Of a DNA stretch of 44,242 nucleotides, positions 5,724 to 33,982 are shown piece after piece (the stretch's first letter is position 1; the number at the start of each line of letters is the position of its first letter). The notes beneath the pieces were generated by a model. The model did no database searches and was not told the DNA's origin. It was given only the letters and a program-made list of their open reading frames with translations. Source of the stretch: Candidatus Woesearchaeota archaeon (GTDB taxonomy: Archaea; Nanobdellota; Nanobdellia; Woesearchaeales; UBA12501). The position numbers and the translations under genes are program-made. The DNA is taken from assembly GCA_016177345.1 (NCBI GenBank), contig JACOVM010000077.1, positions 1-44,242 on the forward strand. The letters run 5' to 3'.

Positions 5724-8060
5724 ATGATTCGTTCAAAAGCACAATTAACCGGATTTATCCTGCTCGCCGTAGTTCTCCTGGTGCTCATCACAACGCTAGT
5801 CGTTCTCTCGAAAGCCTCAGAGATGAAAGAGCTAGAAAAAAAAGCTCACCGGATTCAGGAGCAGCTGAAGCAAACAGGAACAGTCAACACGTACATCACC
5901 AGATGCCTTCAGCAAAGTGTTGAGCAGCCTCTTCTAAAAATTCTTCGCCAGGGAGGAGAGTTTGCGCCTGTAGCAGGAATGTTAAGAACGAACTCGACGC
6001 TTCTTACAGTAGGAATCGAGCAGGCGCAGCAAGATTTCCCGCCAGAATATCCAATACCAAAAACACCTTTGGATGATCTTCCAGCGTACCCATTCGGCAA
6101 GCCAAGCTTGCCTCCCTTGTGCGAGATTGGGGGGGCGAATGATCTTTCACTGCACGAGTTCGCGTATCCCTGCCCAACAGGATCATACGGCACGGCATCG
6201 ATTCAAGCACAGCTCGAAGCCTACTCAGCACGAATGCTCACGGAATGCGCCAACACGAGCATGATGCAGGAACTATCCCAATCCGTTATTAAAACAGAAG
6301 AGCCTAAGGTAGAAATTGTTCTCGGAAAGAATGATATTACTGCGATCGCCCACTACCCTATTGTTATTGACATTGATGGAAAAGAAGTAACGAGGCTGAT
6401 GGACTTTGAGATCGTGCTTCCCATACGCCTGAAAAGGATGTATGCCGTGGCAGCGTTTGCGGCAAGAACAGACAGCCTGCTGCTCGGCTTTTCTCCAGCT
6501 ATGATTGGAACAAATAGCTCTTACAAGATCGAGGATTTTGATGACCACATGGACGTGAAAGGAAAAGAGATCGAGAACGGAACAATAATCCAGCTTACCG
6601 ACCGCCTCTCTGGTATCCAAGGCAAGCCGGTCGTCTTCCAATTCGGCAGAGAAAACAGGAGGCCTGCGCTGGACTACATTCACCACAACGAAGATGAAGA
6701 ATATGACATTCGAGTGGAAGAAGGCGAGATGGTTAGAATCAATGTCCGGGCAATTGATCCTGATGAGCTGAATCATCTTCTTCGGTATACCATAACCTTA
6801 AACAATGTTGAAGCGGTTGTGCCTCCGGGAGTGCACGAATTCGAGTTTCCACCAGGGATTCATGAAATGAGGGTAGAAGTGTGCGACAAGGGAGGATTGT
6901 GCGACTGGCAGGACATCAAGATTTTAGTGAGTGTTGTTGAGCTTGGCGCGAGCGGCAGCTCAAGCAGTGGAATTGGCTCATCAACACCGAGTACAGGGCC
7001 AGGTCCGTCTGGAACAGGAAATGGGTCTGGAAGGCCAGCCCCAACACGTCCATCAACGATATTAACCTCAACGAGCACATTGTATGGTGATTACAAATTC
7101 ATCACCAGGCAAGCTGCAACGCTAGCGTCGAGAACCGATGCCATCCTCCTTCATGCAAGGCCAATAACGAAGGAGGGTTTGGAGGATCTCTCCTCAGCTA
7201 TTTCTCCATTCAGCGATGAAGCAAACGATATCTTCAAGCTTGAAATAGAAGAAGAATGCTTCGAAGGCAGCTGCGCAAGATCTTACAAAATTAGCACGGC
7301 AAAGGCATGCACTGACAAATCAGGATCAGAGACAGAGCGGTGCAGCGCATCAAAAGGCCAATATGCCTCAACAGAAACTCTCACGTGCGTGAACGCGCTA
7401 GCATCAACGACGATAGAAAAGCAGCAGGGAAACAGCACTGGAATCTGCAATCCGAGCGCTGCGCCAAGTAGCCCAACTGGAAATTACGATAGTGGCGGGC
7501 CGTACCAGTGCAAGGCAACATGTAACTCCTTTGGAAGGTGCTTAAAGCCAGTAGAATGCTCCTGCGCTTCCGGTGGAGAATATACCGGAGATGCAGCATG
7601 CAACAATATTCCCTTTTCCTCATTTGCAGCGAGCAATTTCGTGTTTGGAACAGGGGGAACTGTTTGTAATGCCCAATGCAAGGTTGTCAGCCTTGATGGT
7701 AGTGAAGAAGCGTGTGAGTTTGCAAAAGGCCCTGGTGCATACTCTGCAGGAAGATGCTGCCGCGGCTGCGTTACCGGCTCAGGAGAATGCATTGACAAAG
7801 AACGGATCAGCACAGACAAAACAGGGTTTTGCTCAAGAGCAGCAGAACTGCTGGCGTGCAACTCATTGCGATTCTGCACGAGCCAGCCATCGAATCAGGA
7901 ACGCACTGACTCTGGATATGTATATTGCGGAAATAGCGGTGGAGGCAGCTCAGGCTTCGCCTGGCAGGCTACGCCAGCTGGGCTTGGCGGCGCGTGCAGC
8001 ACTGGCGGCTTCTGTCGAGAAAATACTGCTATTGCCCAAGGGTATTATGCCTGCCAGTGA
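5724..8060 (+). CDS. Pilin-signal surface protein with beta-sandwich, S/G/P/T linker and Cys-rich C-terminal third (778 aa)
   Basis: The N-terminus MIRSKAQ/LTGFILLAVVLLVLI is class III signal-like. A linker SGSSSSGIGSSTPSTGPGPSGTGNGSG is followed by a C-terminal ~250 aa dense in Cys. The start lies 31 nt after the previous gene. Confidence 0.8.
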   Translation: MIRSKAQLTGFILLAVVLLVLITTLVVLSKASEMKELEKKAHRIQEQLKQTGTVNTYITRCLQQSVEQPLLKILRQGGEFAPVAGMLRTNSTLLTVGIEQAQQDFPPEYPIPKTPLDDLPAYPFGKPSLPPLCEIGGANDLSLHEFAYPCPTGSYGTASIQAQLEAYSARMLTECANTSMMQELSQSVIKTEEPKVEIVLGKNDITAIAHYPIVIDIDGKEVTRLMDFEIVLPIRLKRMYAVAAFAARTDSLLLGFSPAMIGTNSSYKIEDFDDHMDVKGKEIENGTIIQLTDRLSGIQGKPVVFQFGRENRRPALDYIHHNEDEEYDIRVEEGEMVRINVRAIDPDELNHLLRYTITLNNVEAVVPPGVHEFEFPPGIHEMRVEVCDKGGLCDWQDIKILVSVVELGASGSSSSGIGSSTPSTGPGPSGTGNGSGRPAPTRPSTILTSTSTLYGDYKFITRQAATLASRTDAILLHARPITKEGLEDLSSAISPFSDEANDIFKLEIEEECFEGSCARSYKISTAKACTDKSGSETERCSASKGQYASTETLTCVNALASTTIEKQQGNSTGICNPSAAPSSPTGNYDSGGPYQCKATCNSFGRCLKPVECSCASGGEYTGDAACNNIPFSSFAASNFVFGTGGTVCNAQCKVVSLDGSEEACEFAKGPGAYSAGRCCRGCVTGSGECIDKERISTDKTGFCSRAAELLACNSLRFCTSQPSNQERTDSGYVYCGNSGGGSSGFAWQATPAGLGGACSTGGFCRENTAIAQGYYACQ

Positions 8061-8144
8061 CCATCAAGAGCCTTTTGGACAAAAGCATAGATGGTTCTTA
8101 AAAAATTCATTTGGTTACATATATCACCATTTGGTTTTAGAAAA

Positions 8145-8175: not shown

Positions 8176-8754
8176 ATGGCAAGGCTCATGAAAAAACAAG
8201 GGCAAATCAGCCTTCAAGAGGCATACCAAAAGGCCATGCTATGGTTTTTTGCCTTCCCCGACCAAACCATGAGCCTTAGTGATCTTGCAGCAAAGCTCAA
8301 CATCTCAAAAACGACAGCCAACCATGCTGTTGCCAAACTAAAGGGGGAAGGCTTTCTCGAGGTAAAGGAATTTGGGAGGGCATGGGGCATTACCTGCAGA
8401 AAAGGCCATGCCTACCATTATTCAAAAAAAATAGCATATAACCTCCTGCTTGTCTATGCATCCTCAATAGTAGAAGAAGTAAAGCGAGCTGTCCAAAATC
8501 CCTTGTCCATTGCTCTATTTGGCAGCTACAGAAAGGGAGATGATAACGAGCATAGTGATATTGACATTGCGGTAGAAGTGTTGGGCAGCAAAGAATTAGA
8601 GATCATTGAGCTCGGCACCTTTCCCCTATTTGGGTATAGAAAAAATGTGAAGCTCAACCTCCATGTTTTCTCTAGAAAAAAAGTAGATAGCAATCTTTTT
8701 GCAAATATCGCCAATGGCATTGTGCTTGATGGCTTTCTTGAGGCTAAGCCATGA
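8176..8754 (+). CDS. HTH + minimal nucleotidyltransferase (MNT-type antitoxin-like)
   Basis: A wHTH-like N-terminus (LSDLAAKLNISKTTANHAVAKLKGEGFLE) is followed by LFGSYRKGDDNEHSDIDIAVE (GS..DxD). The maximal ORF starts at TTG 8155, but ATG 8176 fits the TATA spacing. Confidence 0.75.
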   Translation: MARLMKKQGQISLQEAYQKAMLWFFAFPDQTMSLSDLAAKLNISKTTANHAVAKLKGEGFLEVKEFGRAWGITCRKGHAYHYSKKIAYNLLLVYASSIVEEVKRAVQNPLSIALFGSYRKGDDNEHSDIDIAVEVLGSKELEIIELGTFPLFGYRKNVKLNLHVFSRKKVDSNLFANIANGIVLDGFLEAKP

Positions 8755-9152
8755 TCCGTCAGAAAGTACCTGACAAAAAGAACGCACTCAGCATCATTGA
8801 GGCAGCAGAACATGACATGAGATTCACCCTCACGCTTCCAGCGACGGAAGCTGCTGGCCCAACTCTCGTCAGAAACATCTACGAAAGCTTTAGGATGCTT
8901 GGAGATGCACTTCTCATCGCAAGAGGAATCAAGGCTGAGGATCATGTCACCCCAATACAAGAGCTGATAGCATTGCCGGTGAAAACAGAGCGCCCATTGC
9001 AAGTTATTGACCGGCTAAGAACGCTGCGGCACAACATTAATTATTATGGCTACAGGCCAACGCAAGAAGAGGTTGAAGAAGCGATTTCCATAACAAACAT
9101 GTGTTTTCACCAACTCCTTCATGCGGTGAAAAGAAAGGTAAATGAAAAGTAG
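8751..9152 (+). CDS. HEPN-domain protein (cognate toxin-like partner of MNT)
   Basis: ATGA overlap with the MNT gene. All-helical 133 aa with an R-x5-H motif (RLRTLRH) at the position typical for HEPN. Confidence 0.6.
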   Translation: MIRQKVPDKKNALSIIEAAEHDMRFTLTLPATEAAGPTLVRNIYESFRMLGDALLIARGIKAEDHVTPIQELIALPVKTERPLQVIDRLRTLRHNINYYGYRPTQEEVEEAISITNMCFHQLLHAVKRKVNEK

Positions 9153-9279: not shown

Positions 9280-12200
9280 ATGGTGAAAAAGAGGGTCCTA
9301 GGTAGCGTGCTAGTTAGCATTCTCTTTATTCTCCTAAGTATAATGCTTCTTTCTCTTTTCTCAATTACTGGGCTTGCTGTACGAAACGAGTGCTGCATTG
9401 ACTACACCAGAGGATCGTTCTGTACCTCCCTGCTTCTTGATGGCCAAGTATGCCCCTCACCTGGAACAGTAGAGCCAAGAGCATGTGAAGCAATACCTGA
9501 CAAGTGCAGCATTGGCTGCTGTGTCATGCCAGAAGGAAATGTTGAAACACGGGCAAAATTCTCCTGCCAAGAGAGCGGAGGAGTTTTTCGTTCTGGAACA
9601 GAACAGCCATACAGCGTTGGGGTAGAAGACCTTGACTGCACGACGCCATTGCGATGCAGCAGGGATACGGATTGCGGCGCAGGATTGTTTTGCGATACTG
9701 CCCTCCCAGATCCGATCTGCAAAGCTGGAACAACGCCAACCACATGTGAGAATAATGTACGTGACGGTGATGAAACTGACGTTGATTGTGGTGGAAGCTG
9801 TTCATCCTGCGCTGCAGGAGCATCGTGCCTTTCCGATACCGATTGCGCTACCAGCTTTTGCGACGCAAGTGACAGGACGTGCAAGCCTGCAGCAGCAGTC
9901 TCGTGCGGCGACGGATTTATCACGACAAGCCGCGGCGAAGAATGTGAGCCACCAGGATCTTCAGGCGTATCCTCAAGCATTGCCCCCGGCCTTGTCTTGT
10001 GCGAAGGAGAAACACTAGCACAAACCATGGCGCGAGAAGGTAGTTCTATCCAGTGTGACATGAGCTGCAAGGTCATTCCCCCATCTTGTCCTCCCCCTCC
10101 AACTGTTGTGGAAGAGCTGCCGCCAGCAACGCCAGAAGGAACATCCTGCGGTGATAGCATCCTAGACACGCCGAACGCTGCGCTGAATAATGAGCAATGT
10201 GACAGAAATGGGGCAGCAGGAATTGCGTGTTCTCCATTTGGAACAGTAGGTTCTGCATGCCTCTCTCGTGAGGATCCATTAGGGCGAGGATGTACATGCT
10301 ATGCTGAATGCCTGGAGAATCCCGGAAGTATTTCTACCACGGCCCATCAAGAAGTGAACCGGGTTATTATTGAATGGGACGAGTCGGGACTGGTATCCTC
10401 ATGTGTTGCAGGATCATGGCCGAAGCGTTTTATCTATCGATGCAATGAAGACGAGCGTGACTGCAATCTCATGAACGAATATGACATCATCAACGCAACA
10501 GCAACAACAGAAATGAAGTATGTTGACAGAACAATTGAAGAGCGAACAGAATACTGCTACAAGGTTGGAGTAAAGCTTGCCTCAGGAAAATTGGTAACAT
10601 CGCCAAAACAGTGCTTGAGAACATGGAGCGAGATATGCTATGGCCTTGCTGGGGGAGTTGGGAAAGGATTATGCAGCGATGACCGAAGCGCTGCCTTGGT
10701 GTGTGATGAACAGCATGTCGCGCAGCGCATTGAATGTGGAACTGGAAGCATCTGCATGGAATCAGGATTTAATCCAACATGTGTCAGCCAACAAGCATGC
10801 GATGTATGCAATGGCCTCTTTCAAACCTTTGGCGGGCATGTTCCGGTTCCAGTATCACAACTGATCGAAATCGCTGTTGGAGATGGCCTGCAGGAGCTTG
10901 CATGTGATGAAGTATTGAGCTGCGCGTATGATACGACAGAGGAAAACGTGAATGCGTATCAGGAATGCAGCGGTATCACGAGCTGCTACGATTATCATTC
11001 AGAGCATGCATGTGATGGTTTTGGCGGCTCTGACCCTTGCTTTGTTGGCCCCTGTGAGTGGAAAGAGCCATACTGGAACACGGTTGGATTCGGCATTTGC
11101 GCCCCCAAACCATCAACCAAGCTGGACTGTGGAAGGTGCAATCGCGACGAGGAAAGCCCGGATGATGCCTTCAATACCGCATTTTTTAGCGAGTGCAGCC
11201 AGGCCACGTGTGAAGAGGGATATGGTGATTGTTATTTCGATGATGGAACATGCAAGGCACAAACAGATGTTGTCTGTGAAGATTATGCGACAAAAGCAGA
11301 ATGCATGGATGGAGATGGCACTGGCGAAGCTGCTTTCGAGCTCGATGGCAATAATGGAGTAGCACAATACTCCAATGATCGCTTTGAGTATGGGGTATGC
11401 AAATGGACTGACGCAAGCAAATGCTTCAAAGACGCTAACGCAGACACTGTTCCCGACTGCAGCTCAGCCGACAAGCCCTGCCAGAGTGACAAGCAGCCGC
11501 CAGCAACCATTGCTGTTCCAACAAAAGAGCAGATACGACAAGATGCTGGCGATCCACCCCAGCGAATTCTTGTTGGCAAAGACGCAGACCTTCTCTTATC
11601 CGTGTCAGAGCCAGCAGTAACCTACTTCTGCATTGATGAGGTTGATCCAGCAACACCCTGTTCTCCAACTACACCAGCAGTATGCAAGCTTCAGCAGCGC
11701 CTTGACACGCTCGGTGATGGAAATAAGCAGGTTCGGCTCTTCTCCGTTGATTACAATGACAATGTTGAGCAAATACAGTCCATTCCTGTTATTCTTGACA
11801 CCACCACACCAACAATAACTATCACTCCCAATTTTGATGAGGAAACAAAAGTGCTGAAAGTGGTGATGAAAGCTAATGAGCAAGTGAGATGCAGTGCTGA
11901 CATGATGAATGGAAATCTCGAGCCAGCACGCGCAGTTCCAGGAACATCTAAATCAAATGCCATCCAAGGAGAAGTTGGAAGAACATTTAACAGAACATAC
12001 TACCAGCTTCCTGATGACCTGTACTATTTCGTGTATGACTGCAAAGATGCTGCCGGCAACAGAAAGCAGGGTTATTATGCTGTATCTAACGTTGAGACCA
12101 ATTTTATTCATCCTCAGCGGATGGGCATATCTCTCGTCACTGCTAATACTCAGCTAACCGTTCAGGTAAGCACAGATCAAGACGCCGAGTGCAGGCTTTC

Positions 12201-15159
12201 TAAAACAGTATCCCTCTTTGATGGAATGGAAATTACTTCTCCACGAGGAAGAACGCACTCAGCCAATCTCCCCCTCACTCCAGGTCGAAACATCTACACG
12301 ATCAAGTGCAAGACAGATGATGGGACAGTCCATGGAAATCTCGGAGACCGCTTCATCATCAGCAGAGACGTTGTTCCACCAAAGATTTCTTTTGTTCAAG
12401 CGTATGACGGAACAACCATATTTGACCCAGCACTCTCGTATGCTGCTCCCCAATACGCGATGATGGCATGTGATGACACGGCAATTCCCGGTGGCATCGT
12501 TTCCAATCTTGGCTGTCAGCACACCACATACAATCTTAATGGTGCTTTAACCGAGGTTGACCACGAGCTTGGCAGGCTTCATGGCCCAATCTACTTTGGT
12601 GATGGAACAACAGCCTTAACCTACACAGCCCGAGACCAGGGGGGAAATAGCGTCACTGGATCGTCAAGCGTTACCGTTACTCGAGGAGAAAAGTCCATGA
12701 CGATTCGAATAACAAACCAGGATGGAACACCAGTCGAAGATGCTGCTAAACTCCAGCCAGCATTGTATTATGTTATGGTCAGCTCAACCTATCACCTCCA
12801 GGGTGCGGTAGTAACGATAGAAATGCTCGAGCGCGAGGAGGACACTGATGAGGATCGGGAACCAGACATGCTTACCCTTCCATCAGCCCCATTGCTGAGC
12901 AGTGCTCTTGAACAAGCCTTCATTCTCGACCTTCGGCTTGGCACTAGGACGGCAAAAGGAGAGGTGTATGACGTGAACATAATGGCACAAGGAACGATCA
13001 CCGAGCCAGTTCCACCATGCTTTGAAGGAGACATGGCAGCAACTACAGAGGACATTTCTGCTGAAGTAGCTGCGGTAGTTGATGCAAGGCTTGTTGATAT
13101 TCGCCTCGAGCCAATGCTGGAGAGTAGGCAGACAGGCCCGACAGGCGTAGAGTATAATGTGTCCTACCAGAATAATGAGTACTTTACGAATCATCGTGAC
13201 CTGTTTGTAACAGGAAAGCTCCTTGACCCAGACACGACAGGAGAGGTTCAGTTTAGCATTGAAACATTCACCTCAACCTGGAATGGAATAGACACGCTAG
13301 AAAACAATGCAGAGGGTGTTGCTACTGAGGGCTTCATTACCTCTACGGTCGGTGAGGCTGCGATCGGGTCATCTACTGTCCGCGTCGCAAACCCTGAGCT
13401 GATCACGCCAGGATCATATCTTTTGTTCAAGAATCACGAGCGTGTCATGTACAGCCGCTATCGAGCGTTTTATCCTGTTGCAGATGTTGATGGCGACCTT
13501 ATCCTTCTGGCCGAGCCTCTCGAGAAGAAAGTGGGGGGATCTGCGGGAGACGTCGATGTCGAAATTTACAGGAAGCCCTTTCCATATAATTGGTTTGGCA
13601 TGACTGTTCCCCTTCAAGAGGGAAGGAACGTCCTTTCAGTAAAAGCAAAAAGCACGTCAGGAGTGTACTCTCCAGAAAAGACAGTGATCATTCAGCGCGA
13701 TACCATGCCCCCAGAAATCATCAGAACCCTTCCAGCCTTTTCGATCACAAGTGATAATGTTTCTGAAGTTGCGTTCATCGTTCGAGAAGCAACAAAGGGG
13801 AGCGGCATTGAAAAAGCAGAGATCACCATGAATAGCGGAAGCAAGCCAACAACGATAGAAGAAATTCCATCCGAGGCTGAGGGTTACCTGTATTACAAGG
13901 TCAGCTTCGCGCAAGACATCCCATTCGCTGAAGGAACATACACGATAAAACTGGTTGGATATGACAGGGCAAAAAATGTGTTCTCTCCTCCAGAACGGTC
14001 AAGCTTCTCCCTGGAAATTGACCGGGGAGCAGCCATCCCCCCAGTATGGACGGTGATTGGCGGAACAAAAAAAGAGACAGCTCTTTTTGGAACCCTCTGG
14101 TATACTCCATATCCAACCATTGAGGTAATTATTGACTTCTCTGCAAACAAGCTGCCAATCAAGATAACTGGGATGGTCATAAGAGCGCAAGGAACAACAG
14201 CCCAATACCCAATTGGAAGAACATGCGAGGAGGTAAAGCTGGTTGGAACAGAATGGGTTGCAGTGCCAATTCCTGCCGGTGCTGCAGGAGCAGCGGGCAC
14301 TGTAGCAGCTGAAATGACCAACAAGTTTAGGTGCAGGCTGGCAGAACCGCTTGGGCAGAACAACGCGTATCAGATTGGGGTTCGAGCCCATAAAGTCTTG
14401 ACGACAGGGCCATTGCCGGACAACACCTTCTTCAGCGACAGTATCATTCTTGATAACCAGCCACCACAAGTAACCAGCCTCATTTATCATTCTCCCGCAA
14501 AAATCGAGATGCCGCTTGAATTTTACGCAACTGTTCCAAATGAGAGGTACGAGCTCGGGGCGAAACTCACCTACAGCGTGAACAGGGAAACGTACAACCT
14601 TCAGGCAGTTGGAGGATTGAACGGAAACTATCTGTTCATCTGGGACGTGCCGTACTTTGACATCACCCAAGACCTTTACCAAGATATCGATCAGGATAAA
14701 GAATTCCTGATTACCATCTATGACTATGCAGATTCAAGCCACACATGGGAAGCTAGGAGAATGATCAAGATTGACGGAAGGCCGCCAGAGCTTGGAAGCG
14801 TGCAGTTTAGTGTTGAAGCTCCCTATTCCGCAGTAGGCATTCTTGGAAAAGAGTATTACACCAACGCAGAAACAGTTCATATCACTGGAAACTACACGGG
14901 AGATGACGTGAAGTACATCTACATCGAGCCAGGAAGCTTTGATTCAGAAACAGGAGAGTTTGCTGCCCGAGCCCACCCCTTGCGATTGCCAAACAAGAAG
15001 TTCATGTTTGACGTCAAGCTTCAAGGAGAGGCTGAAGAAATGGCCGAAAATAGCTTCGAGCTTGTTGCGGTCGATGACGCAGGAAACAGCATCAGGCTCC
15101 CATTTAAGGTATGGTACGACCAGACTGTTCCACCAAAGCCACAAATTATTATTGAGTAA
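9280..15159 (+). CDS. Giant surface protein: Cys-rich N-terminal quarter + many Ig-like beta-sandwich modules (1959 aa)
   Basis: Signal/anchor MVKKRVLGSVLVSILFILLSIMLL. One 8-Cys ETDVDCGGSC module and two CGD..(E/Q)C Myxococcus-type Cys repeats. About 7 module boundaries of the form D-x-x-(x)-P-P (DTTTPTI, DVVPPKI, DTMPPEI, DNQPPQV, DGRPPEL, DQTVPPK). Confidence 0.85.
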   Translation: MVKKRVLGSVLVSILFILLSIMLLSLFSITGLAVRNECCIDYTRGSFCTSLLLDGQVCPSPGTVEPRACEAIPDKCSIGCCVMPEGNVETRAKFSCQESGGVFRSGTEQPYSVGVEDLDCTTPLRCSRDTDCGAGLFCDTALPDPICKAGTTPTTCENNVRDGDETDVDCGGSCSSCAAGASCLSDTDCATSFCDASDRTCKPAAAVSCGDGFITTSRGEECEPPGSSGVSSSIAPGLVLCEGETLAQTMAREGSSIQCDMSCKVIPPSCPPPPTVVEELPPATPEGTSCGDSILDTPNAALNNEQCDRNGAAGIACSPFGTVGSACLSREDPLGRGCTCYAECLENPGSISTTAHQEVNRVIIEWDESGLVSSCVAGSWPKRFIYRCNEDERDCNLMNEYDIINATATTEMKYVDRTIEERTEYCYKVGVKLASGKLVTSPKQCLRTWSEICYGLAGGVGKGLCSDDRSAALVCDEQHVAQRIECGTGSICMESGFNPTCVSQQACDVCNGLFQTFGGHVPVPVSQLIEIAVGDGLQELACDEVLSCAYDTTEENVNAYQECSGITSCYDYHSEHACDGFGGSDPCFVGPCEWKEPYWNTVGFGICAPKPSTKLDCGRCNRDEESPDDAFNTAFFSECSQATCEEGYGDCYFDDGTCKAQTDVVCEDYATKAECMDGDGTGEAAFELDGNNGVAQYSNDRFEYGVCKWTDASKCFKDANADTVPDCSSADKPCQSDKQPPATIAVPTKEQIRQDAGDPPQRILVGKDADLLLSVSEPAVTYFCIDEVDPATPCSPTTPAVCKLQQRLDTLGDGNKQVRLFSVDYNDNVEQIQSIPVILDTTTPTITITPNFDEETKVLKVVMKANEQVRCSADMMNGNLEPARAVPGTSKSNAIQGEVGRTFNRTYYQLPDDLYYFVYDCKDAAGNRKQGYYAVSNVETNFIHPQRMGISLVTANTQLTVQVSTDQDAECRLSKTVSLFDGMEITSPRGRTHSANLPLTPGRNIYTIKCKTDDGTVHGNLGDRFIISRDVVPPKISFVQAYDGTTIFDPALSYAAPQYAMMACDDTAIPGGIVSNLGCQHTTYNLNGALTEVDHELGRLHGPIYFGDGTTALTYTARDQGGNSVTGSSSVTVTRGEKSMTIRITNQDGTPVEDAAKLQPALYYVMVSSTYHLQGAVVTIEMLEREEDTDEDREPDMLTLPSAPLLSSALEQAFILDLRLGTRTAKGEVYDVNIMAQGTITEPVPPCFEGDMAATTEDISAEVAAVVDARLVDIRLEPMLESRQTGPTGVEYNVSYQNNEYFTNHRDLFVTGKLLDPDTTGEVQFSIETFTSTWNGIDTLENNAEGVATEGFITSTVGEAAIGSSTVRVANPELITPGSYLLFKNHERVMYSRYRAFYPVADVDGDLILLAEPLEKKVGGSAGDVDVEIYRKPFPYNWFGMTVPLQEGRNVLSVKAKSTSGVYSPEKTVIIQRDTMPPEIIRTLPAFSITSDNVSEVAFIVREATKGSGIEKAEITMNSGSKPTTIEEIPSEAEGYLYYKVSFAQDIPFAEGTYTIKLVGYDRAKNVFSPPERSSFSLEIDRGAAIPPVWTVIGGTKKETALFGTLWYTPYPTIEVIIDFSANKLPIKITGMVIRAQGTTAQYPIGRTCEEVKLVGTEWVAVPIPAGAAGAAGTVAAEMTNKFRCRLAEPLGQNNAYQIGVRAHKVLTTGPLPDNTFFSDSIILDNQPPQVTSLIYHSPAKIEMPLEFYATVPNERYELGAKLTYSVNRETYNLQAVGGLNGNYLFIWDVPYFDITQDLYQDIDQDKEFLITIYDYADSSHTWEARRMIKIDGRPPELGSVQFSVEAPYSAVGILGKEYYTNAETVHITGNYTGDDVKYIYIEPGSFDSETGEFAARAHPLRLPNKKFMFDVKLQGEAEEMAENSFELVAVDDAGNSIRLPFKVWYDQTVPPKPQIIIE

Positions 15160-25446: not shown

Positions 25447-25662
25447 ATGATAAAAATAAAGAGGAAGCCATCAATACATTGGTACTTATCTAGGCGTTTA
25501 TGGAATTCAAGAAAGGCGCAAGATACTTCGCTCCCCATGAAGTACATTGTCGGATTAATCCTTCTCGCCATTGCCCTTATACTCTTCATCATGCTCTATG
25601 TTGGTTGGATTCCCTCACCTGATGATATCGTCAATAAGCTTGTTGGGATTATACGGAGATGA
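25447..25662 (+). CDS. Small pilin-signal protein (71 aa)
   Basis: MIKIKRKPSIHWYLSRRLWNSRKA/QDTSLPMKYIVGLILLAIALILFIML. ATG 25447 avoids the 29-nt overlap implied by the maximal ORF (25414). Confidence 0.55.
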   Translation: MIKIKRKPSIHWYLSRRLWNSRKAQDTSLPMKYIVGLILLAIALILFIMLYVGWIPSPDDIVNKLVGIIRR

Positions 25663-26882: not shown

Positions 26883-28088
26883 ATGCTTCGACAGTTATTC
26901 CAGTCAAAGAAGGCAACACTTGACTTTGTCCTCGGTCTTATTCTTATGATTGCACTCGTAACAGCAACAGCCATGATAGGGTTCAAGATTTTTAAGTTTG
27001 GCACTGGAGGGGCAGGATTAAAATCACTGAACAAGTTTGCAGCAAGTATCGACGAGTTTAGCACAGCAGGGCAAGGGTCAAGCTCCTCTGTTGTCCTTGA
27101 AATTGAAGAAGGGGATGTTGTTTTCGGATTTTCAAAATATGATGCTCCTTTGATGAAGATGTACAATCCAACAGTGGCAGGTATTGGCGACAGCATGACG
27201 GTGCTCCATAAATTTATCCGAAAGCCCACAGAATGTGAGAGCGGGCTTGCCTGCATCTGCTATTGTGAGGGGCATTCAACCCATGACGAGCTTGAAGCAA
27301 CCTGCTCTGCTATGGCTTGTAAGAGTATAGACGGAGTAAACTTTCAACGAATAACTGACCAGGCACTCTTGGTTCCATCTGACGACTACCTTTGGACAGG
27401 CACGAGCATGGATAGCCATCCCTTGCTGAATGGGTTTGCATTGTATAACCGAGAGACCTTGTTTCCAAAAGTTGCCTTTGATCCTGCTCCAAATGCTCTT
27501 GTCAACATGAGAAAGCCGCTTGGGGAGCTTACCCATATTCGTATCGAAAAGGGAAAAGATGACCTTGTTGCAATCTGTGTTTACCAGGAAGGGCGACAAT
27601 GCCTTAGTGAGGAAATGGAGAAAAGTTACAACGTGGCAAAAAAGACCCAAGATGCGATAAAGGCAATCGAGCAAGATATTACTGACAATAATTACGGCCA
27701 GGCTGTTCAACGCCTGAATGTTCTTCTCAGTGATAGAGAACTGTTAGAACAATTAGACAGTTATACTGCTGAAAAGCTGTATTACCTCAAAGGTATTGCA
27801 CATCTTGGAACCAAGGAATATGGCCTTGCAGAAGAATCGTTTGAGAAAAGCATTGACGTGGCAGAAATAGGAATGTTTACTGCTGATGCCAAAGCAAAAT
27901 TAGATGACGCAGTACGATTGAAGGAATGCAAGGAACTCACCTGCGAACAGCTTTCTACAAGCGAATGCGAAACAAACACGTGCGGCATTCCTTGTATTGT
28001 TATGGAAAAAACAGTGCATGAAGGAGAAGAGCCTCTAACAACAACACAAAAATACTGTACAACCCCTTCACTGGATATACTTACATAA
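26883..28088 (+). CDS. Pilin-signal protein with TPR-like segment and Cys-rich tail (401 aa)
   Basis: MLRQLFQSKKA/TLDFVLGLILMIALVTATAMIG. TPR-like YGQAVQRLNVLL...YYLKGIAHLGTKEYGLAEESFEKSI at ~27687-27870. Confidence 0.75.
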   Translation: MLRQLFQSKKATLDFVLGLILMIALVTATAMIGFKIFKFGTGGAGLKSLNKFAASIDEFSTAGQGSSSSVVLEIEEGDVVFGFSKYDAPLMKMYNPTVAGIGDSMTVLHKFIRKPTECESGLACICYCEGHSTHDELEATCSAMACKSIDGVNFQRITDQALLVPSDDYLWTGTSMDSHPLLNGFALYNRETLFPKVAFDPAPNALVNMRKPLGELTHIRIEKGKDDLVAICVYQEGRQCLSEEMEKSYNVAKKTQDAIKAIEQDITDNNYGQAVQRLNVLLSDRELLEQLDSYTAEKLYYLKGIAHLGTKEYGLAEESFEKSIDVAEIGMFTADAKAKLDDAVRLKECKELTCEQLSTSECETNTCGIPCIVMEKTVHEGEEPLTTTQKYCTTPSLDILT

Positions 28089-28163: not shown

Positions 28164-28649
28164 ATGAAAGCATGGGCAAGAAAAGGAAATGTACTGTTCA
28201 CTATCGCAGAACTTGTTATCGCAGCAGTAGTTGTTTTTCTATTTATTAACGGAGCCTTAAAGGTGGCAACAAGCACGGCATCACAACGCAATTTTCTGGC
28301 AAATGATATTGCCACTACCATGAGCACACTCCATTCTGTGCCAGGTGATGCAACTTATATATATAAACAGGAGAGCCTTCAGAAGTATAAGTTCACAATC
28401 CAAACAGGCCTGGTAAAGGTAAGCGAGCCAGCAGCTAGTGTCATGGGAGAAGCGGTACAAACTATCGCAGTATACCCTGGTGCAGAAAAGGAAATGAGGT
28501 CTACCGTTATTGCATTTGCGCCAAGCCTTCAGCTGGTAAAAACAGGAAAGCTTGTTCATATCCAGAGCTCTCCTGAATATGAGATCCTGGAAGAACAAGC
28601 GCCAGATGTTTCCACAAGCCGTGCTACCTGTAGTGGAGACTGTGGCTAA
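28164..28649 (+). CDS. Pilin-signal protein (161 aa)
   Basis: MKAWARKG/NVLFTIAELVIAAVVVFLFI. The FTIAELVIA core resembles the bacterial FTLIEL pilin motif. Confidence 0.75.
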   Translation: MKAWARKGNVLFTIAELVIAAVVVFLFINGALKVATSTASQRNFLANDIATTMSTLHSVPGDATYIYKQESLQKYKFTIQTGLVKVSEPAASVMGEAVQTIAVYPGAEKEMRSTVIAFAPSLQLVKTGKLVHIQSSPEYEILEEQAPDVSTSRATCSGDCG

Positions 28650-28777: not shown

Positions 28778-29614
28778 ATGGCCTCAATCGTAACAAATAA
28801 GAGGGACAATCGAAGAGCCCTGCTGCTCATCATTCTTCTCCTTACAAGCATAGCGCTCTTCAGCAGTGTTGGCCATGCCCTTCTTATTGACCAGGATCAG
28901 TTTACAAACACAGCACTTCAAGAAAAGATAAGCCTGCTTGAGCTTCAAAGCAGAAAAACCATCGTTGTTGCGATCACCAAAACCTCAACTCAGCCATTTG
29001 ACGATGGAGTCTCGCTTCTCCAAGAGCATCAAGCAGACCTTGTTGTTTTATACCGATATCAAGAAAATAAGATTGCAGTCATTCAGCCTATTGATGCATG
29101 GCTTTCAGACGCTGAGATAAAAGAGATTATAGATAAGCACGCTGCAGAAAAGGAGCAAGCGATTACACCGGAAGAAAAAAATAGTTACATTATCGCTATT
29201 CTCGATGAAATTACTCCCTTGCTTATTGCTGCAAAAGATACCAGAAGCTATTGTGCCGCTGTTAAAGACGGCTATTGCGATCCAAAATGTGAGGGAATAG
29301 ACATGGACTGCTTGTGTGGTGATGCAATCTGCCAGTATCACGAAGTTAAGGCAACGTGCAGTGCAGATTGTGGAGGGGCTAGAGAAACCTTTTGCTCAAT
29401 TCTCCGAGATGGCATTTGCGATGAGAATTGCAAAAGGGATATTGATTGCGGGTTTGGAAAGCTTATGGCAGTAACTGAACAAGTTCAACAAAAGACGAAG
29501 CTCCAATACAGTACAATCCTTGGCATCCTCTATGCTGTTTTTTTAGCAGCCTCTGTCGTGTTCGGCTTCCTCCTCTATCAGGAACGCCAGCAAAAAAAGG
29601 AAAGAAAAAGCTAA
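28778..29614 (+). CDS. Type I membrane protein with Cys-rich D-G-x-C-D-x-x-C modules (278 aa)
   Basis: Sec-type signal RRALLLIILLLTSIALFSSVGHA. C-terminal TM ILGILYAVFLAASVVFGFLLY plus a KKERKS tail. DGYCDPKCEGIDMDC and DGICDENCKRDIDCG are also present. Confidence 0.75.
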   Translation: MASIVTNKRDNRRALLLIILLLTSIALFSSVGHALLIDQDQFTNTALQEKISLLELQSRKTIVVAITKTSTQPFDDGVSLLQEHQADLVVLYRYQENKIAVIQPIDAWLSDAEIKEIIDKHAAEKEQAITPEEKNSYIIAILDEITPLLIAAKDTRSYCAAVKDGYCDPKCEGIDMDCLCGDAICQYHEVKATCSADCGGARETFCSILRDGICDENCKRDIDCGFGKLMAVTEQVQQKTKLQYSTILGILYAVFLAASVVFGFLLYQERQQKKERKS

Positions 29615-29662: not shown

Positions 29663-30205
29663 ATGAAGGCCATAAGAAAACGAATGATAAAAAACTGGAA
29701 CCAACAGGCACAAGCAAGCGCTGATAGTGCAGGAAAAACGATAACGTACCTTTGTGCAGTAATCATTCTCGGGCTTGCTGCAGTGGGCTTCTCTGTTGTT
29801 GCAGCACACTTGCAAAGCGATACCCAATTCATCAAGCCCGGCGTCGAAAAGCTTATTGGAAAACACCGATTCCTCCACACTAGCGCCTGTTTTTCATACG
29901 AAGACCAGCTCACGGGAAGGGCAATGCCAAGAGTGATTGACCTTGAAAAAATGACCCAAGAGCGCTTAGAAGAATGTTACATGGTAGAGCAGAAGTCTCA
30001 AAACCAGTGCTTTCAGCTCCAGCTCTTGAGAAGGGAACCAAAAGAGCCTGAGGAGCCGGAAAAGCCACTTCGCGAGATCCAGACAGCAAACTGGGTTGAC
30101 TGTTTTGTCACGAAACAGCGAGAAGAGACAGACATCGAATACGTTCTCATCAAAGAAGGAGATCAACTCAGCCAAGGAATAATGAAGATAAGAATGATGA
30201 GATGA
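29663..30205 (+). CDS. N-terminally anchored protein, non-canonical pilin-like signal (180 aa)
   Basis: ..QASADSAGKTITYLCAVIILGLAAVGFSVVAAH. A hydrophobic helix is present but the [KR]-[GA] site is atypical. Confidence 0.6.
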   Translation: MKAIRKRMIKNWNQQAQASADSAGKTITYLCAVIILGLAAVGFSVVAAHLQSDTQFIKPGVEKLIGKHRFLHTSACFSYEDQLTGRAMPRVIDLEKMTQERLEECYMVEQKSQNQCFQLQLLRREPKEPEEPEKPLREIQTANWVDCFVTKQREETDIEYVLIKEGDQLSQGIMKIRMMR

Positions 30206-30226: not shown

Positions 30227-30880
30227 ATGTGCATCATGAAATTATTCCACAATACAAAAGGAGTTGACATGCAGGACTGGTTTGGCATCGTATTCTCGGT
30301 AGTTATCGGCGCATTTGTTTTTTTTGGCATGGCAGGCCTTCTCATGGTTACTGCGCAGCACGAGAAGACTGTCCTTAAAGAGATCACCTCTGTAGTTGAT
30401 GATTCCTTTTTCTTAATGACTTATGTAAGAACTCCTCTCTCTTCACAAACAATAGAGGGAGAAGAGGAAAACAAAGAGCTATCCTCTGTTCAAACGTATC
30501 TGGCTGAGGAAGGGCTTACGATGGCCCAGCTTATTGACATTGTTGGAAACAAAAAAGAAGCAAAAGCGCTTTTTCATGAAACAAGGGCAGGAATACCTGA
30601 AGAGATGCGAACATTGTCAGATGAGGAAGTAGAAGGCTTGCTTGAGCAGCTTCTTGATGCTTATAATAAAGACCTCTTCACTGCACGATATGGAGTACAA
30701 GGATGGAGCCTCATCATAGACTATCCGGAACAGTACAGAAATGATATTGATATTATCCATGATACAGGTGGGCTTGGTGGGGGAAGAGCAACAGAGATAA
30801 CAATTCCGACAATCGACGGAAAAAATGTGATAACCATACGCCTCGTGAGGAATATTCATGCAGTTGTTGTCAGGCCCTAA
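30227..30880 (+). CDS. Pilin-signal protein (217 aa)
   Basis: MCIMKLFHNTKG/VDMQDWFGIVFSVVIGAFVFFGMAGLL. Confidence 0.7.
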   Translation: MCIMKLFHNTKGVDMQDWFGIVFSVVIGAFVFFGMAGLLMVTAQHEKTVLKEITSVVDDSFFLMTYVRTPLSSQTIEGEEENKELSSVQTYLAEEGLTMAQLIDIVGNKKEAKALFHETRAGIPEEMRTLSDEEVEGLLEQLLDAYNKDLFTARYGVQGWSLIIDYPEQYRNDIDIIHDTGGLGGGRATEITIPTIDGKNVITIRLVRNIHAVVVRP

Positions 30881-30967: not shown

Positions 30968-33900
30968 ATGATAGAAAAAAAAAGAACAAAAAGGATAATG
31001 AAGCCCTGGAAGAAAAAAGGGGCGTATGAACTCTACTTTGGAATTATCGGTGTTGTTATAGCCCTCTTTGTCCTCCTTTATTTTTCGCTTGCTGAAGAAA
31101 AGGGAAGTAGGTTTATAGGAGAGCAGCAGCTGCAAGTGCTTGTTGCCGATGCAAAAGTACAGTCATCCCTCCTTTATCTTGATCAAGCCTCTGGATATGC
31201 AGTCCAACAAGCTATTTATACCCTTGCTGCAAAAGGAGGCTTTAGTAAAGAAACTACTTGTGGAACGTATTATGGGGCAGCATCTTGGCAGACTGTTGTT
31301 CAAGAGGAAGCACAAGGTCGCCAGGTGAGCCAACATGTTCAAAGTTGCAATCCTCTTGTTCAGCTCCACCAATCCTTTGAGGAGGAGCTCAATGAGCAGC
31401 TTCAGCGATACCTTCAGCATGACCAACAGCTGCGAGAATTTCTTTTTCACCTTCAGATTAAAGAAGGGGGTGCACAAGAGGATTGGACTAATAAGGTAAG
31501 AGAGGATGAAGATACTTCTGGTATCCCCCATATGCCTAGCCGGTATACCACAGTTATTGGGACTACAGATACCCCATTAAAAGTAGATATCCTTAAGGAA
31601 CTGCAAGAGGACGAAGGCCTTAATTCGGCTTCATCATCATTTGGGGTATATCCATCTACCGAGGGAGAAACTGGATTTTTTTCAAGAAAAGGAATGCCTA
31701 TTGATAGAATCGTCGTGCACTACACGGTATCATCAACAACAGAAGCGACTGTTCAAACCTTTTTAGAGGAAGAGGTTAGCATCCATTACATTCTGGGTAC
31801 GGAAGAAGAAGGCTTCAAGGTAACTCAGATGGTGCCAGAAGAATTTGGGGCCTATCATGCGGGGGGATGTTCTGACGCAACGTGTAAGCCTGGTGTTTAT
31901 GAAAACATGAATATACGAGCTATTGGAATTGAAATTGTCAATTGGGGATTTCAGAGATGTGGCACTGCAAAGCAAGGCCAATGTCCTGAAGGATGCCAAG
32001 GGCCATACGAGCGGCTCTGTGTAAATGATAACAAAGAAGCGTGTGGCACAATATTATATTGTTGGCAGCCATACCCAGAAGGCCAATATCTTGCGCTGGT
32101 TCAACTTATTGCAGACATTGTTGAGCGGCACAAAACCCTTCAGACTGAGCAAGGATTGACAACAAGAGCTAATATTATCGGGCACAATGAGATCAAATAC
32201 CAAAAATCAGATCCGGGGCCAAGGGAAGTTATGGATCTCGACAGGCTTACTAATGATGTAAATACTGAGCTGATGAGTAGAAAATCCCTTGCTTCAACGA
32301 TGACCCCGGTTCTTGGGGCAGCGATTGCTCCGGCGGACACAATGTCTGAAGAGCAAAATAGTGCAGATGCTAGCGAACAAGAGGGTGAAAAACAAGGAGT
32401 ATATCAGATTCAGCCAACCTTTGCCACAACACTAGCTTACTCTTTTACCGACTACTCCCTATTAACAGATGCACTCTATGGAGAGAACGGTGTTGTCAAC
32501 AAGACCTTAGCCTGTGAAAAACAAGGCAGGGTTGTTGAGGAATGCCTCGTCGAGGCAACAGAGTCAATAAACAATGAAGTGCTCAGCAAGCAAGGGCTTC
32601 TATTGTACAATGGAGACTGTGATGTTCAGTCGAATGTAAAAACAGATTTCTTAGAGTACTATTCTCTTTGCCAACAATCAGGGCAGGACCAATGTATATG
32701 CACGATATCCTTAGCAAAAGATCCTAAACAGCATGGGCTAGTTGAGTTTAGTGTCGGTGGAGACGAACAAACAGAAGCCATGCCTTTTTATGATCATGAA
32801 TCAGCTGTTTTTCGCCCTGATGAGCATCTTGAGACAATATCGTTAGGTACCGTACAGGATCTTGATGAGGAACCAACATTCAACGAAGAAGAAATGCTTA
32901 CTATCCATATGGCTGAAAACATGATCAACAAAAAGCTGCCATTCTACAAAAAAGATGAAAATCTGTATTTTGTGGAGGATGGGAAAACAGGCGCAGTCCC
33001 TCAATGCAGGGAACAAAAAAGGATGTTCCTGTTTTGTGCTGTACAGCAAGACATACAACGAGTAATCTATGACCCAATTGAACAAGAGATTGCAAACAAG
33101 AATGTAGAATACAAATTCGCTATTGCATTTCCAGACATTACCCCGCCAAAGCCGGTAAAAAATAGCATTGCCTATGACAAGCCAGGAGCAGAAGATTCTG
33201 TCATCCTCACTTGGGATAAAAGTGAAGAGAAAGATATTGAGGCTTTTTCAGTATTTGTTGCACCAGAACAAGGGGATCTAGCTGGCCTCTTTGATCAAGA
33301 AACAAGCAGGATAAAAGAAGAGCTTCAACCACAAGAATTCTTCATAAAGGATGTTGTTCTTCTCGAAGGAGGCATTACCAGAGAGGACCTTCAAACTTGC
33401 ACCTGGAATTTGGAAGAAAAAATGTGTGAAACAACATTGCTCAATGGTGAAAAGATTGTTCTCGATGAAGGTATTCTGTACGAGACAACAGATGATGCAC
33501 CATACTACCTTCTTGTTTTGCATGCCATTCCTAACGGCATACCCCACCAATTTGCAATTACTGCAAGAGACATTTTCAAAAATGAAATAAATAATCTTGA
33601 TGATGGCCAGAAAATAAATAAAAAGAGTGGAACGTCAAAAGATGACTTGCCGCCGGAGATGATAGGCCCGGCAAGGACTATGCTCATCGAAGAAACAGAA
33701 GGAGATAAAGTAACAAAAAAGATACGCGTTGAATGGGATCTTCCAACACATAATATGGATGGCGGTAGTGTGGATGATGTTTCCTCATTCATTATAAAAT
33801 ATAGTAGAGAACGGGGGGCAACGAAAAAAACTGCTCAAAAAGAAGAATCGTGCACTGGGCAATTATGCTCCACGTTCTTACCCTATCTTGGCCAAGGGCT

Positions 33901-33982
33901 TATCCAAGTTGGCGCCCTTGATGACCAAAAAAATATATTCCAGGACTGGGAGACGTATACCCCAGTAGCAACAGTTTCTTAG
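30968..33982 (+). CDS. Pilin-signal protein carrying an Amidase_2 (N-acetylmuramoyl-L-alanine amidase / PGRP-type) domain + beta-rich C-terminal modules (1004 aa)
   Basis: WKKKG/AYELYFGIIGVVIALFVLLYF. Amidase core at ~31690-32220: IDRIVVHYT, GAYHAGG, IGIEIVNWG, IIGHNEI, KSDPGP (AmpD-type H/H/D zinc triad pattern), with Cys-rich insertions. Confidence 0.8.
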   Translation: MIEKKRTKRIMKPWKKKGAYELYFGIIGVVIALFVLLYFSLAEEKGSRFIGEQQLQVLVADAKVQSSLLYLDQASGYAVQQAIYTLAAKGGFSKETTCGTYYGAASWQTVVQEEAQGRQVSQHVQSCNPLVQLHQSFEEELNEQLQRYLQHDQQLREFLFHLQIKEGGAQEDWTNKVREDEDTSGIPHMPSRYTTVIGTTDTPLKVDILKELQEDEGLNSASSSFGVYPSTEGETGFFSRKGMPIDRIVVHYTVSSTTEATVQTFLEEEVSIHYILGTEEEGFKVTQMVPEEFGAYHAGGCSDATCKPGVYENMNIRAIGIEIVNWGFQRCGTAKQGQCPEGCQGPYERLCVNDNKEACGTILYCWQPYPEGQYLALVQLIADIVERHKTLQTEQGLTTRANIIGHNEIKYQKSDPGPREVMDLDRLTNDVNTELMSRKSLASTMTPVLGAAIAPADTMSEEQNSADASEQEGEKQGVYQIQPTFATTLAYSFTDYSLLTDALYGENGVVNKTLACEKQGRVVEECLVEATESINNEVLSKQGLLLYNGDCDVQSNVKTDFLEYYSLCQQSGQDQCICTISLAKDPKQHGLVEFSVGGDEQTEAMPFYDHESAVFRPDEHLETISLGTVQDLDEEPTFNEEEMLTIHMAENMINKKLPFYKKDENLYFVEDGKTGAVPQCREQKRMFLFCAVQQDIQRVIYDPIEQEIANKNVEYKFAIAFPDITPPKPVKNSIAYDKPGAEDSVILTWDKSEEKDIEAFSVFVAPEQGDLAGLFDQETSRIKEELQPQEFFIKDVVLLEGGITREDLQTCTWNLEEKMCETTLLNGEKIVLDEGILYETTDDAPYYLLVLHAIPNGIPHQFAITARDIFKNEINNLDDGQKINKKSGTSKDDLPPEMIGPARTMLIEETEGDKVTKKIRVEWDLPTHNMDGGSVDDVSSFIIKYSRERGATKKTAQKEESCTGQLCSTFLPYLGQGLIQVGALDDQKNIFQDWETYTPVATVS

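Follow-up and report, generated by a model that had tools for sequence, protein, structure and literature searches.

How should a run of archaeal genes be understood when most of their products begin like prepilins and no gene for an assembly apparatus lies beside them? The question is raised by JACOVM010000077.1, a complete 44,242-bp NCBI contig from a metagenome-assembled genome of Candidatus Woesearchaeota (GCA_016177345.1; locus tag prefix HYS47_*), which was analyzed over its whole length and is referred to below as the window. Between positions 5724 and 33982, at least 18 co-oriented genes encode proteins with putative class III (prepilin-type) signals, and these genes stand among others for giant cysteine-rich surface proteins and end with one for a predicted peptidoglycan hydrolase. 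We favor, at somewhat better than an even chance, the view that the region is a Woesearchaeal operon for the subunits of a type IV filament (TFF) whose assembly machinery is encoded elsewhere; in it, mini-pilins would form the bulk of the fiber, a conserved trio would serve as minor or tip subunits, the giants would act as Sec-exported adhesins, and a pilin-anchored hydrolase would be aimed at bacterial walls.

The first line of evidence is the motif itself. Among the products of the genes from 5724 to 33982, a hydrophobic core near the N-terminus is present in 22, of which 19 carry [KR][GA] no more than 14 residues upstream of it; shuffling of the n-regions gave 8.9±2.2 motif-bearing proteins with a maximum of 16, and none of 5000 shuffles reached the observed 19. 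One of the 19, encoded at 28778-29614, has a Sec-type signal, and the 18 that remain are identical to the set listed in a first-pass annotation of this DNA, whose ORFs and N-termini are all present on the plus strand with the starts that it assigned. The hydrophobic cores of the window proteins score 2.6-3.9 on the Kyte-Doolittle scale and begin 1-9 residues past the site, and residue +1 is Gln in 8 of the 18 and A, T, E, S, N or V in the other 10.

Orthologue alignments of four of these proteins place the site more precisely:

5724-8060, plus strand: pilin-signal protein of 778 aa, site RSKA/QLTGFILLAVVLL, 4.1% Cys, relatives in 30 loci, without a Pfam match
18539-19585, plus strand: core pilin-like protein 1 (NCBI HYS47_03480), 348 aa, site QKKG/AVEIQFNWIFILIIGAL, an invariant Q-F-x-W in the helix and four conserved Cys
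19719-20231, plus strand: core pilin-like protein 2, 170 aa, site NHKA/QIKMGETLGVLIVFF
20228-20794, plus strand: core pilin-like protein 3, 188 aa, site NRKA/QMELIGIALVVV, ATGA overlap with the upstream gene

The logo of the 170-aa family reads K-K-[A/S/G]/Q-I-Q-M-G-E-T-I-A-V-L, with Gln at +1 and Glu at +6 each in 67/68 orthologues; that of the 188-aa family reads K-K-[A/S/G]/Q-M-E-I-L-G-L-A-I-V-V, with Gln at +1, Glu at +3 and Gly at +6 each in 63/66. In the 348-aa family, K-[G/A] precedes x-x-E-[I/V]-Q-F-N-W-I-F, in which Q, F and W are invariant and the Glu falls at +2 or +3 depending on the register. The family of the 5724 protein, which is about 400 aa long in most genomes and encoded upstream of the giants, shows K-[S/G/A]/Q-[I/V/L]-T ahead of a hydrophobic helix. 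Lys or Arg occupies position -2 in every aligned orthologue of the three core families, and position -1 is only ever Gly, Ala or Ser (42G/37A/1S in the 348-aa family, 32A/28S/8G in the 170-aa family and 27A/25S/14G in the 188-aa family). The motifs that had been called at these N-termini are present, but several of the proposed cleavage positions were displaced, for the orthologues put the site between [G/A/S] and Gln; for the 19719 protein, orthologue conservation rules out KMG/ETLG in favor of HKA/QIKMGE.

In the related loci, 632 of the 812 co-oriented ORFs from the 348-aa gene onward carry the motif, with Gln at +1 in 290 of the 632. The same residue is found at +1 in none of 17 motif-bearing giant proteins and in one of six minus-strand control ORFs. 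Known substrates of the Methanococcus maripaludis prepilin peptidase EppA have the sites RAQI, KGQV, KGQL and KGQI, and Gln at +1 is required (PMC4371748); the predicted locus site, K-K-[A/S/G]/Q together with a fixed Glu, matches this Methanococcus signature (KGQ/RAQ, Gln +1). The near-invariance of the site across orthologues of the 170-aa and 188-aa proteins supports the original proposal that these N-termini behave as class III signals; that they are cleaved we infer.

The arrangement is conserved along with the motif. The 348-aa family occurs in 173 species-level genomes, and the synteny of the cluster is kept in at least 80 related genomes; three closed genomes (CP060219.1, OY970338.1 and OZ246410.1) also have the locus. 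In the 83 related loci used for synteny counts, each examined over up to ±10 kb, relatives of the 348-aa protein were found in all 83, of the 170-aa protein in 77, of the Ig-like (Big_13) protein at 15209 in 71, of the giant at 9280 in 66 and of the 188-aa protein in 59; the mini-pilins described below have relatives in 32-41, and the proteins at 30968, 29663, 24666 and 28164 in 24, 19, 17 and 12, respectively. Where a locus holds both the 348-aa and the hydrolase genes (29 loci), the block has a median length of 9,961 bp and a median of 16 plus-strand ORFs, 14 of them with the motif. The 80 records retrieved are nearly all titled Woesearchaeota, Nanoarchaeota, Nanoarchaeia or 'uncultured Methanosarcinales', and two are titled as bacteria. 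The locus-bearing records bearing unexpected titles, namely Candidatus Binatia bacterium and Dehalococcoidales bacterium (L021 DATILO010000105.1, L034 CAYFEZ010000037.1) and 'uncultured Methanosarcinales' (about 35 loci), probably reflect mis-binning or automatic mislabelling.

Do the core proteins also look like pilins? AlphaFold2 models of two of them, made with alignments of 25 and 62 homologues, place a long helix at the N-terminus: in the 348-aa protein (pLDDT 90), helix 6-59 is followed by a beta-rich globular head and a C-terminal helical bundle, and in the 170-aa protein (pLDDT 93), helix 4-59 is followed by two short helices and a four-stranded sheet. These helices comprise 54-56 residues, or about 52-53 after the predicted cleavage, and the alpha-1 helix of type IV pilins is about 53 residues long; as modelled, both proteins fit the pilin-like plan of a long N-terminal helix and a globular head. 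In these models the hydrophobic segment belongs to the fold itself, unbroken and packed on the head, which argues against a cleavable Sec signal. The resemblance to pilins lies in signal and architecture, and not in any match to a known pilin family.

Two members of the trio are related to each other: by hhalign (91.8%, E 7e-7), the family of the 170-aa protein is a distant paralogue of that of the 188-aa protein. A single-sequence search with the 188-aa protein returned one near-identical match only. The claim that the mature parts share no similarity outside the mini-pilin array fails for these paralogues, as it does for the proteins at 22526 and 26406, whose N-termini are mini-pilin-like. 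Two members of the 170-aa family (P0067, P0075) carry the JGI labels 'cytochrome/quinol oxidase subunit 2' and 'preprotein translocase subunit YajC'. The sole PDB match of the family profile is the transmembrane (TM) helix of YajC, at E 0.18, and the JGI names are evidently artefacts of TM-helix similarity.

Several observations nevertheless weigh against a type IV filament. No pilin, Pilin_N, Class_IIIsignal or archaeal flagellin N-terminal model matched any locus protein in searches of Pfam (E<=0.1) or NCBIfam (E<=1), so that the profile check proposed along with the first-pass annotation came back empty; the only matches were sub-threshold ones of mini-pilins to Flp1_like (E 0.008-0.035). 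Foldseek comparison of the two models with the PDB yielded nothing at E<=0.001, and its best-ranked hits included no pilin; profiles of the 170-aa and mini-pilin families recovered only generic TM helices (YajC, the ErbB2 TM segment) from PDB sequences. Ser at -1 is commoner than in described class III sets, the conserved Glu lies at +3 or +6 and not at the +5 expected of EppA substrates, and about half of the window sites lack Gln at +1 and would require a less stringent, PibD-like peptidase. As the first-pass annotation noted, machinery is also missing in cis: neither a secretion ATPase nor a polytopic platform nor an A24 peptidase turned up in Pfam and motif scans of the window, and no ORF with a T2SSE-type Walker A motif, TadC-like polytopic protein or A24 peptidase occurs within ±10 kb in the 84 related loci included in the machinery survey. 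Type IV pilus components have, moreover, been stated to be missing from DPANN genomes (He et al., 10.1101/2020.05.14.094862).

All of the multi-TM, P-loop and GxGD proteins that surfaced in the survey of the 84 loci are unrelated ones (SPP, LPG synthase, YdjM, SpoIIM and small kinases). The first of these is a presenilin/SPP-type GxGD intramembrane aspartyl peptidase (PF06550), encoded on the minus strand within the cluster of two genomes only (L058 13741-14703 and L042 13800-14762); in mechanism it is akin to the prepilin peptidases, from whose family it is distinct.

How much weight the missing machinery deserves depends on what is usual in archaea. The six pilins PilA1-6 of Haloferax volcanii (pilA1-6) and other archaeal pilins are encoded away from their machinery (PMC4371748, PMC4858521), so that the expectation that pilin genes sit beside a PilB/PilC pair was too strong; because archaeal pilins are commonly encoded apart, absence in cis is not unusual in itself. 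Two conserved CpaF/TadC loci, one of them with PilA/FlaF, have been described across cluster-2 DPANN, including Woesearchaeota (Hamm et al., PMC11291902), and an Epd-like system 1 with its own peptidase has been placed in DPANN (preprint 10.64898/2026.04.22.720090).

If the proteins were instead uncleaved type II signal anchors that form a membrane contact complex with the giants, the K-K-small-Q-x-E pattern would reflect the positive-inside rule and helix packing, and no filament would be made. Such an arrangement would sit well with the lack of any profile hidden Markov model (HMM), PDB-sequence or fold match to known pilins, with the lack of machinery in cis in all 84 loci and with the statement of He et al., and the conserved residues within the helix (QFNW, E, G) could equally make TM-TM contacts. 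We nonetheless regard it as unlikely, because a near-invariant small residue followed by Gln falls exactly at the boundary of the n- and h-regions in several unrelated families, which is the signature of EppA cleavage; because the Sec-type proteins of the same loci lack that signature (0/17); and because TFF ATPase and platform loci are reported in Woesearchaeota.

If a filament is built, which protein would supply its bulk? The candidates for the major subunits are four small proteins encoded in tandem, followed by a larger one with a related N-terminus:

21340-21606, plus strand: mini-pilin of 88 aa
21619-21897, plus strand: mini-pilin of 92 aa
21907-22227, plus strand: mini-pilin of 106 aa
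22224-22529, plus strand: mini-pilin of 101 aa
22526-23596, plus strand: mini-pilin-headed protein of 356 aa, site GRKG/TLTWTQIAAAAL, the first ~70 aa 44% identical to the 21340 protein and then a Cys-rich extension of ~280 aa

Each mini-pilin consists of a KA/QG or KG/QG site, a hydrophobic helix of the LSLN type and a six-Cys knob ending in CC, and related arrays are present in other loci. They may be compared with the very small Epd/Flp-type major pilins, which they appear to resemble in size only.

Another reading is that the class III signals serve a short pseudopilus or a bindosome-like assembly, which would export or display enzymes and giants, no long adhesive fiber being made. In its favor, many members are large (the mature parts reach ~970 aa), and the enzyme among them recalls the sugar-binding proteins of the Sulfolobus bindosome (PMC4371748). 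At least five 'minor' members are conserved, as in the pseudopili of type II secretion systems (T2SS). We judge this alternative quite unlikely, given that four subunits so small (75-90 aa when mature), encoded in tandem, are more typical of fiber-forming Flp/Epd-type pilins, that there is no outer membrane or periplasm to be crossed by a piston, and that the giants have ordinary Sec signals.

The bindosome had been put forward as the nearest known analogy for this locus, and its general principle carries over: functional, non-structural proteins bear prepilin-type signals, and a TFF machine is believed to assemble them on the cell surface (PMC4371748). Its particulars do not, in that the cargo here comprises a polymorphic murein hydrolase and Cys-rich domains and not solute-binding proteins, and Pfam scans of the window revealed no solute-binding, ABC or Bas-type ATPase or platform domains.

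The largest proteins of the region are of a different kind, and the idea that they are fused to pilin-signal cargo has to be abandoned: three giants are Sec-type proteins encoded as mere neighbors.

785-5692, plus strand: giant secreted Cys-rich protein, 1635 aa from the ATG at 785, 3.9% Cys, MopE-type metal-binding Cys motifs (PF11617, E 1e-10), relatives in 16 loci
9280-15159, plus strand: giant Cys-rich surface protein, 1959 aa, 4.1% Cys, Sec-type N-terminus, TSP3-like Ca-binding repeats in common with the 15209 protein
15209-18451, plus strand: surface protein of 1080 aa, Sec-type signal, Big_13 Ig-like domain (PF19077, 32 bits, cutoff 27), TSP3-like repeats

The ORF of the first giant is open from 578, and an upstream start would give it a Sec-type signal ending in KRLIVVLLSMILLLPIGLA, so that its true start probably lies upstream of the ATG at 785. 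Orthologues of the 9280 giant match TSP3_bac and TSP_3, and this protein is a candidate adhesin. The 15209 protein has a second TM segment near residue 823 and a basic tail, and thus reads as a putative type I membrane anchor. Class III signals were considered for the giants and are ruled out by their Sec-type N-termini, with Gln at +1 in 0/17. The giants are likewise excluded as carriers of the SLT domain reported in the literature for these organisms, since none was detected in the four giants scanned.

What, then, would such a structure do? The clearest indication of function comes from the last gene of the cluster:

30968-33982, plus strand: pilin-signal murein hydrolase, 1004 aa, site KKKG/AYELYFGIIGVV

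Behind its pilin-type N-terminus, this protein has a conserved N-terminal module of ~200 aa (IGEQQL...YLDQSA; the N-module) and an Amidase_2 domain (PF01510) at residues 242-418, which scores 76.5 bits against a cutoff of 26 (E 3e-21). The domain aligns to AmpDh2/AmiD and retains H251 (VVHYT), H406 (GHNEI) and D415 (SDPGP), the Zn-binding residues of the AmpD/AmiD type. The prediction of a peptidoglycan amidase is a solid one. Among the enzymatic and binding modules called in the first-pass annotation, the amidase is upheld; the TPR and Ca-binding calls fall below the Pfam thresholds. The C-terminal ~560 aa (residues ~445-1004) correspond elsewhere to a separate downstream gene (L078 18728-20506, L029 18802-20616 and others), which starts METKDL[I/F]LL... 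and has its own hydrophobic N-terminus without a K-G/A site, identifying the 1004-aa hydrolase of the window, by sequence comparison, as a fusion.

At the orthologous position in other loci, the same pilin-type N-terminus and N-module are joined to other hydrolases (SLT, VanY/M15, M15_3, 3D). A phmmer search with the N-module alone recovered 232 cluster representatives, and a Pfam scan covering 105 of them found M23 in 12, SLT in 11, VanY and Peptidase_M15 in 9 each, M74 and M15_3 in 5 each, M15_4 and NlpC/P60 in 4 each, Amidase_2 in 2, and Amidase_3, Muramidase, Glucosaminidase and YkuD in one each. The named members of the family are annotated as Woesearchaeota or Nanoarchaeia. One of them, P0218 (1855 aa), carries Amidase_3, Peptidase_C39_2 and an NAGPA phosphodiester glycosidase in series behind the N-module, an architecture that suggests multi-enzyme 'wall-breaching' proteins. 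As the terminal member of the cluster, the hydrolase gene is present in 26 of the 42 loci with sufficient downstream sequence.

Neither murein nor its synthesis is known from this archaeal group, so that the hydrolase would have a bacterial wall as its target, be it that of a host or of prey. The reading of the locus as a host-contact system, which was offered before the hydrolase family came to light, is strengthened by the polymorphism of that family, and the locus is probably a system for attachment to, and breaching the wall of, a bacterial host, although that the target is bacterial we infer.

Large SLT proteins have been reported from Woesearchaeota and Pacearchaeota, and bacterial hosts suggested for them; peptidoglycan degradation by Woesearchaeota has also been proposed as a 'vampiristic' or scavenging trait (PMC8204110 and PMC9723730 for the former, PMC9723730 for the latter, in the accessible portions of these papers). 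The same portions make no mention of a pilin-type N-terminus, a common adaptor or an operon context. The scavenging proposal leads to a further explanation, in which the hydrolases and the locus serve scavenging, anti-bacterial defense or remodelling of the cell's own envelope and have no role in host attachment. Besides that published proposal, as far as its accessible text goes, it can draw on the fact that enzymes of the bacteriocin and endolysin kinds typically swap their hydrolase domains too. But the hydrolase gene has a fixed place at the end of a conserved cluster of 16 pilin-signal genes beside adhesin-like giants, and its product keeps a membrane- or pilin-type N-terminus instead of a cleavable Sec signal. 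Murein synthesis is not known from this group, and we consider the explanation very improbable.

Returning to the type IV filament, its operation can be outlined as follows. About 18 co-transcribed proteins would be made with EppA-type class III signals (K-K-[G/A/S]↓Q and a hydrophobic helix of ~20 residues), an A24-family prepilin peptidase encoded elsewhere would trim the short basic leader, and a CpaF/TadC-type ATPase and platform, also encoded elsewhere, would pull the helices out of the membrane and build them into a filament or a short pseudopilus. The four mini-pilins, each a helix with a knob held by three disulfides, would be the likely bulk subunits, while the three conserved core proteins (348, 170 and 188 aa) would, with other mid-size proteins, prime or cap the fiber as minor pilins. 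The Sec-exported giants, with their Cys-rich, Ca-binding and Ig-like parts, would act as adhesins, and the terminal protein would use its pilin-type N-terminus and conserved adaptor to display a peptidoglycan hydrolase. A bolder form of this outline, possible but doubtful, envisages a dedicated pilus-like organelle with all of its subunits drawn from the one operon, onto which the adaptor would load interchangeable murein hydrolases so that the giants grapple a bacterium while its wall is drilled.

Which known systems come closest? The Epd/EppA system of M. maripaludis (TFF 'system 1') has the same succession of K/R, G/A, Gln at +1, a nearby Glu and a hydrophobic helix. It too combines several minor pilins, which are essential, with a very small major pilin, the corresponding roles being presumptive here; and some of its pilin genes (epdE and others) also lie away from the machinery, with system 1 reported in DPANN. 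It differs in that no sequence or HMM similarity was detected, in that its Glu is at +5 and not at +3/+6, and in that Ser is frequent at -1 here. M. maripaludis has 16 FlaFind positives genome-wide against ~18 genes in one operon here; the 11-gene epd cluster of Methanococcus holds an ATPase, a platform and a peptidase, none of which is found in cis here; and giant adhesins and a murein hydrolase belong to the cluster here.

Bacterial minor-pilin/PilY1 tips and T2SS pseudopilins comprise, like the locus as modelled, a co-encoded pilin-like set with a helix of ~53 residues and a head, adjoined by a large adhesin. The signal in the present locus is archaeal, without the N-methyl-Phe motif, Foldseek gives no match, and the Sec-exported giants are unrelated to PilY1.

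The published large extracellular lytic transglycosylases of Woesearchaeota and Pacearchaeota (Castelle et al. 2015, 2021 fam00969, 'Module 98'; Vigneron et al. 2022) come from the same organisms and share the idea of attack on bacterial walls, and the SLT-bearing members of the N-module family are probably among them. As far as the accessible parts of those reports go, they describe only SLT/GH23 enzymes and no N-module joined to at least ten hydrolase families. Type IV pili of Saccharibacteria and other members of the candidate phyla radiation, and those of Bdellovibrio, are used by ultrasmall or predatory cells to find and bind host bacteria (PMC11291902, PMC11623550, in the parts accessible). 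Those organisms are themselves bacteria with annotated machinery, and their hydrolases are not known to bear pilin-type N-termini. Polymorphic effectors (of type VI and type VII secretion systems, and phage tail lysins) share the principle of a constant N-terminal module with interchangeable wall-degrading domains; the delivery domain here would be a pilin-like signal with a novel ~200-aa module, and a producer without murein would need no immunity genes.

Several further genes between the mini-pilin array and the hydrolase gene complete the cluster:

24535-24669, plus strand: pilin-signal gene, 44 aa, KG/E and a hydrophobic helix
24666-25442, plus strand: pilin-signal gene, KG/E, motif kept by the orthologues in the 17 loci
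25447-25662, plus strand: pilin-signal gene, KA/Q
25684-26409, plus strand: pilin-signal gene, KG/S
26406-26807, plus strand: pilin-signal gene, KG/E, a DxDxDG Ca-like motif and six Cys, motif kept by orthologues in 4 loci
26883-28088, plus strand: pilin-signal gene, KA/T, weak TPR, motif kept by orthologues in 7 loci
28164-28649, plus strand: pilin-signal gene, KG/N, motif kept by the orthologues in the 12 loci
28778-29614, plus strand: Cys-rich type I membrane protein of 278 aa, with a Sec-type signal (..GHA), a C-terminal TM segment and a basic tail
29663-30205, plus strand: degenerate-site family member of 180 aa, site QQA/QASADS... in the window, with the Lys lost
30227-30880, plus strand: pilin-signal protein of 217 aa, site NTKG/VDMQDWFGIVFSVVIG, with a relative in one related locus only

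Despite its [KR][GA] match, the 28778 protein is ruled out as a pilin by the Sec signal and the C-terminal anchor. In orthologues of the 29663 protein, K[G/A/S]Q/E is separated from a helix by a long spacer.

Nearly all genes from 578 to 33982 lie on the plus strand, in the order giant Cys-rich protein (to 5692), 778-aa protein (5724), a nucleotidyltransferase/HEPN pair, the 9280 and 15209 genes, and then the run of small and mid-size genes, which is broken only by one minus-strand gene. Coupling by ATGA start/stop overlaps, as had been described, occurs at five junctions of the array (20228, 22224, 22526, 24666 and 26406). Within the otherwise empty gap of 545 nt that separates the 188-aa gene from the mini-pilin array lies one further feature:

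21096-21140, plus strand: hairpin with a 17-bp stem (RNA minimum free energy -31.6 kcal/mol, z -8.2)

A TATA-like box, TTTATAAAA, is found near 21298-21306, ahead of the mini-pilin array, and together the two elements may form a terminator and promoter, or another regulatory boundary, between the transcription units of the core trio and of the mini-pilins. The hairpin has no match in Rfam, and Rfam and tRNA scans of the window gave zero matches.

Two interruptions of the cluster have no counterpart in related loci. The gene pair at 8176-9152, between the 778-aa gene and the 9280 giant, encodes a nucleotidyltransferase (helix-turn-helix and NTP_transf_2) and a HEPN protein joined by an ATGA overlap; it looks like an inserted toxin-antitoxin module and is absent from all 83 related loci. 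The minus-strand gene at 23630-24385, the sole opposite-strand gene inside the array, encodes a glutamine amidotransferase of class II (GATase_4, E 9e-48) and, lacking a counterpart in the related loci, is probably also an insertion. At the margins of the window, a 175-aa minus-strand ORF (1-527) runs off the left contig end, and archaeal housekeeping genes (RPA, RadA, TrmB, a TRAM protein and LigT) occupy the right side. Other assemblies did not extend the contig, as Logan contigs stop at the same places or are shorter.

That proteins with class III signals are assembled by a type IV filament machine is already known. New here are the 14-18 class III genes in one conserved operon, their giant Cys-rich neighbors and, above all, the occurrence in an archaeon of a pilin-signal adaptor to which murein hydrolases are joined interchangeably. 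In abundance, Woesearchaeota and their relatives rank with the foremost of the uncultured archaea. The locus joins two separate threads, the isolated 'large lytic transglycosylase' genes and the debate on DPANN pili, and offers a concrete molecular handle on the bacterial hosts or prey of these archaea as well as a candidate for a new way of displaying enzymes with type IV filaments. If the bolder reading outlined above is true, the cluster would encode a machine for cross-domain parasitism or predation, and pilus-displayed polymorphic effectors would represent an undescribed form of enzyme delivery.

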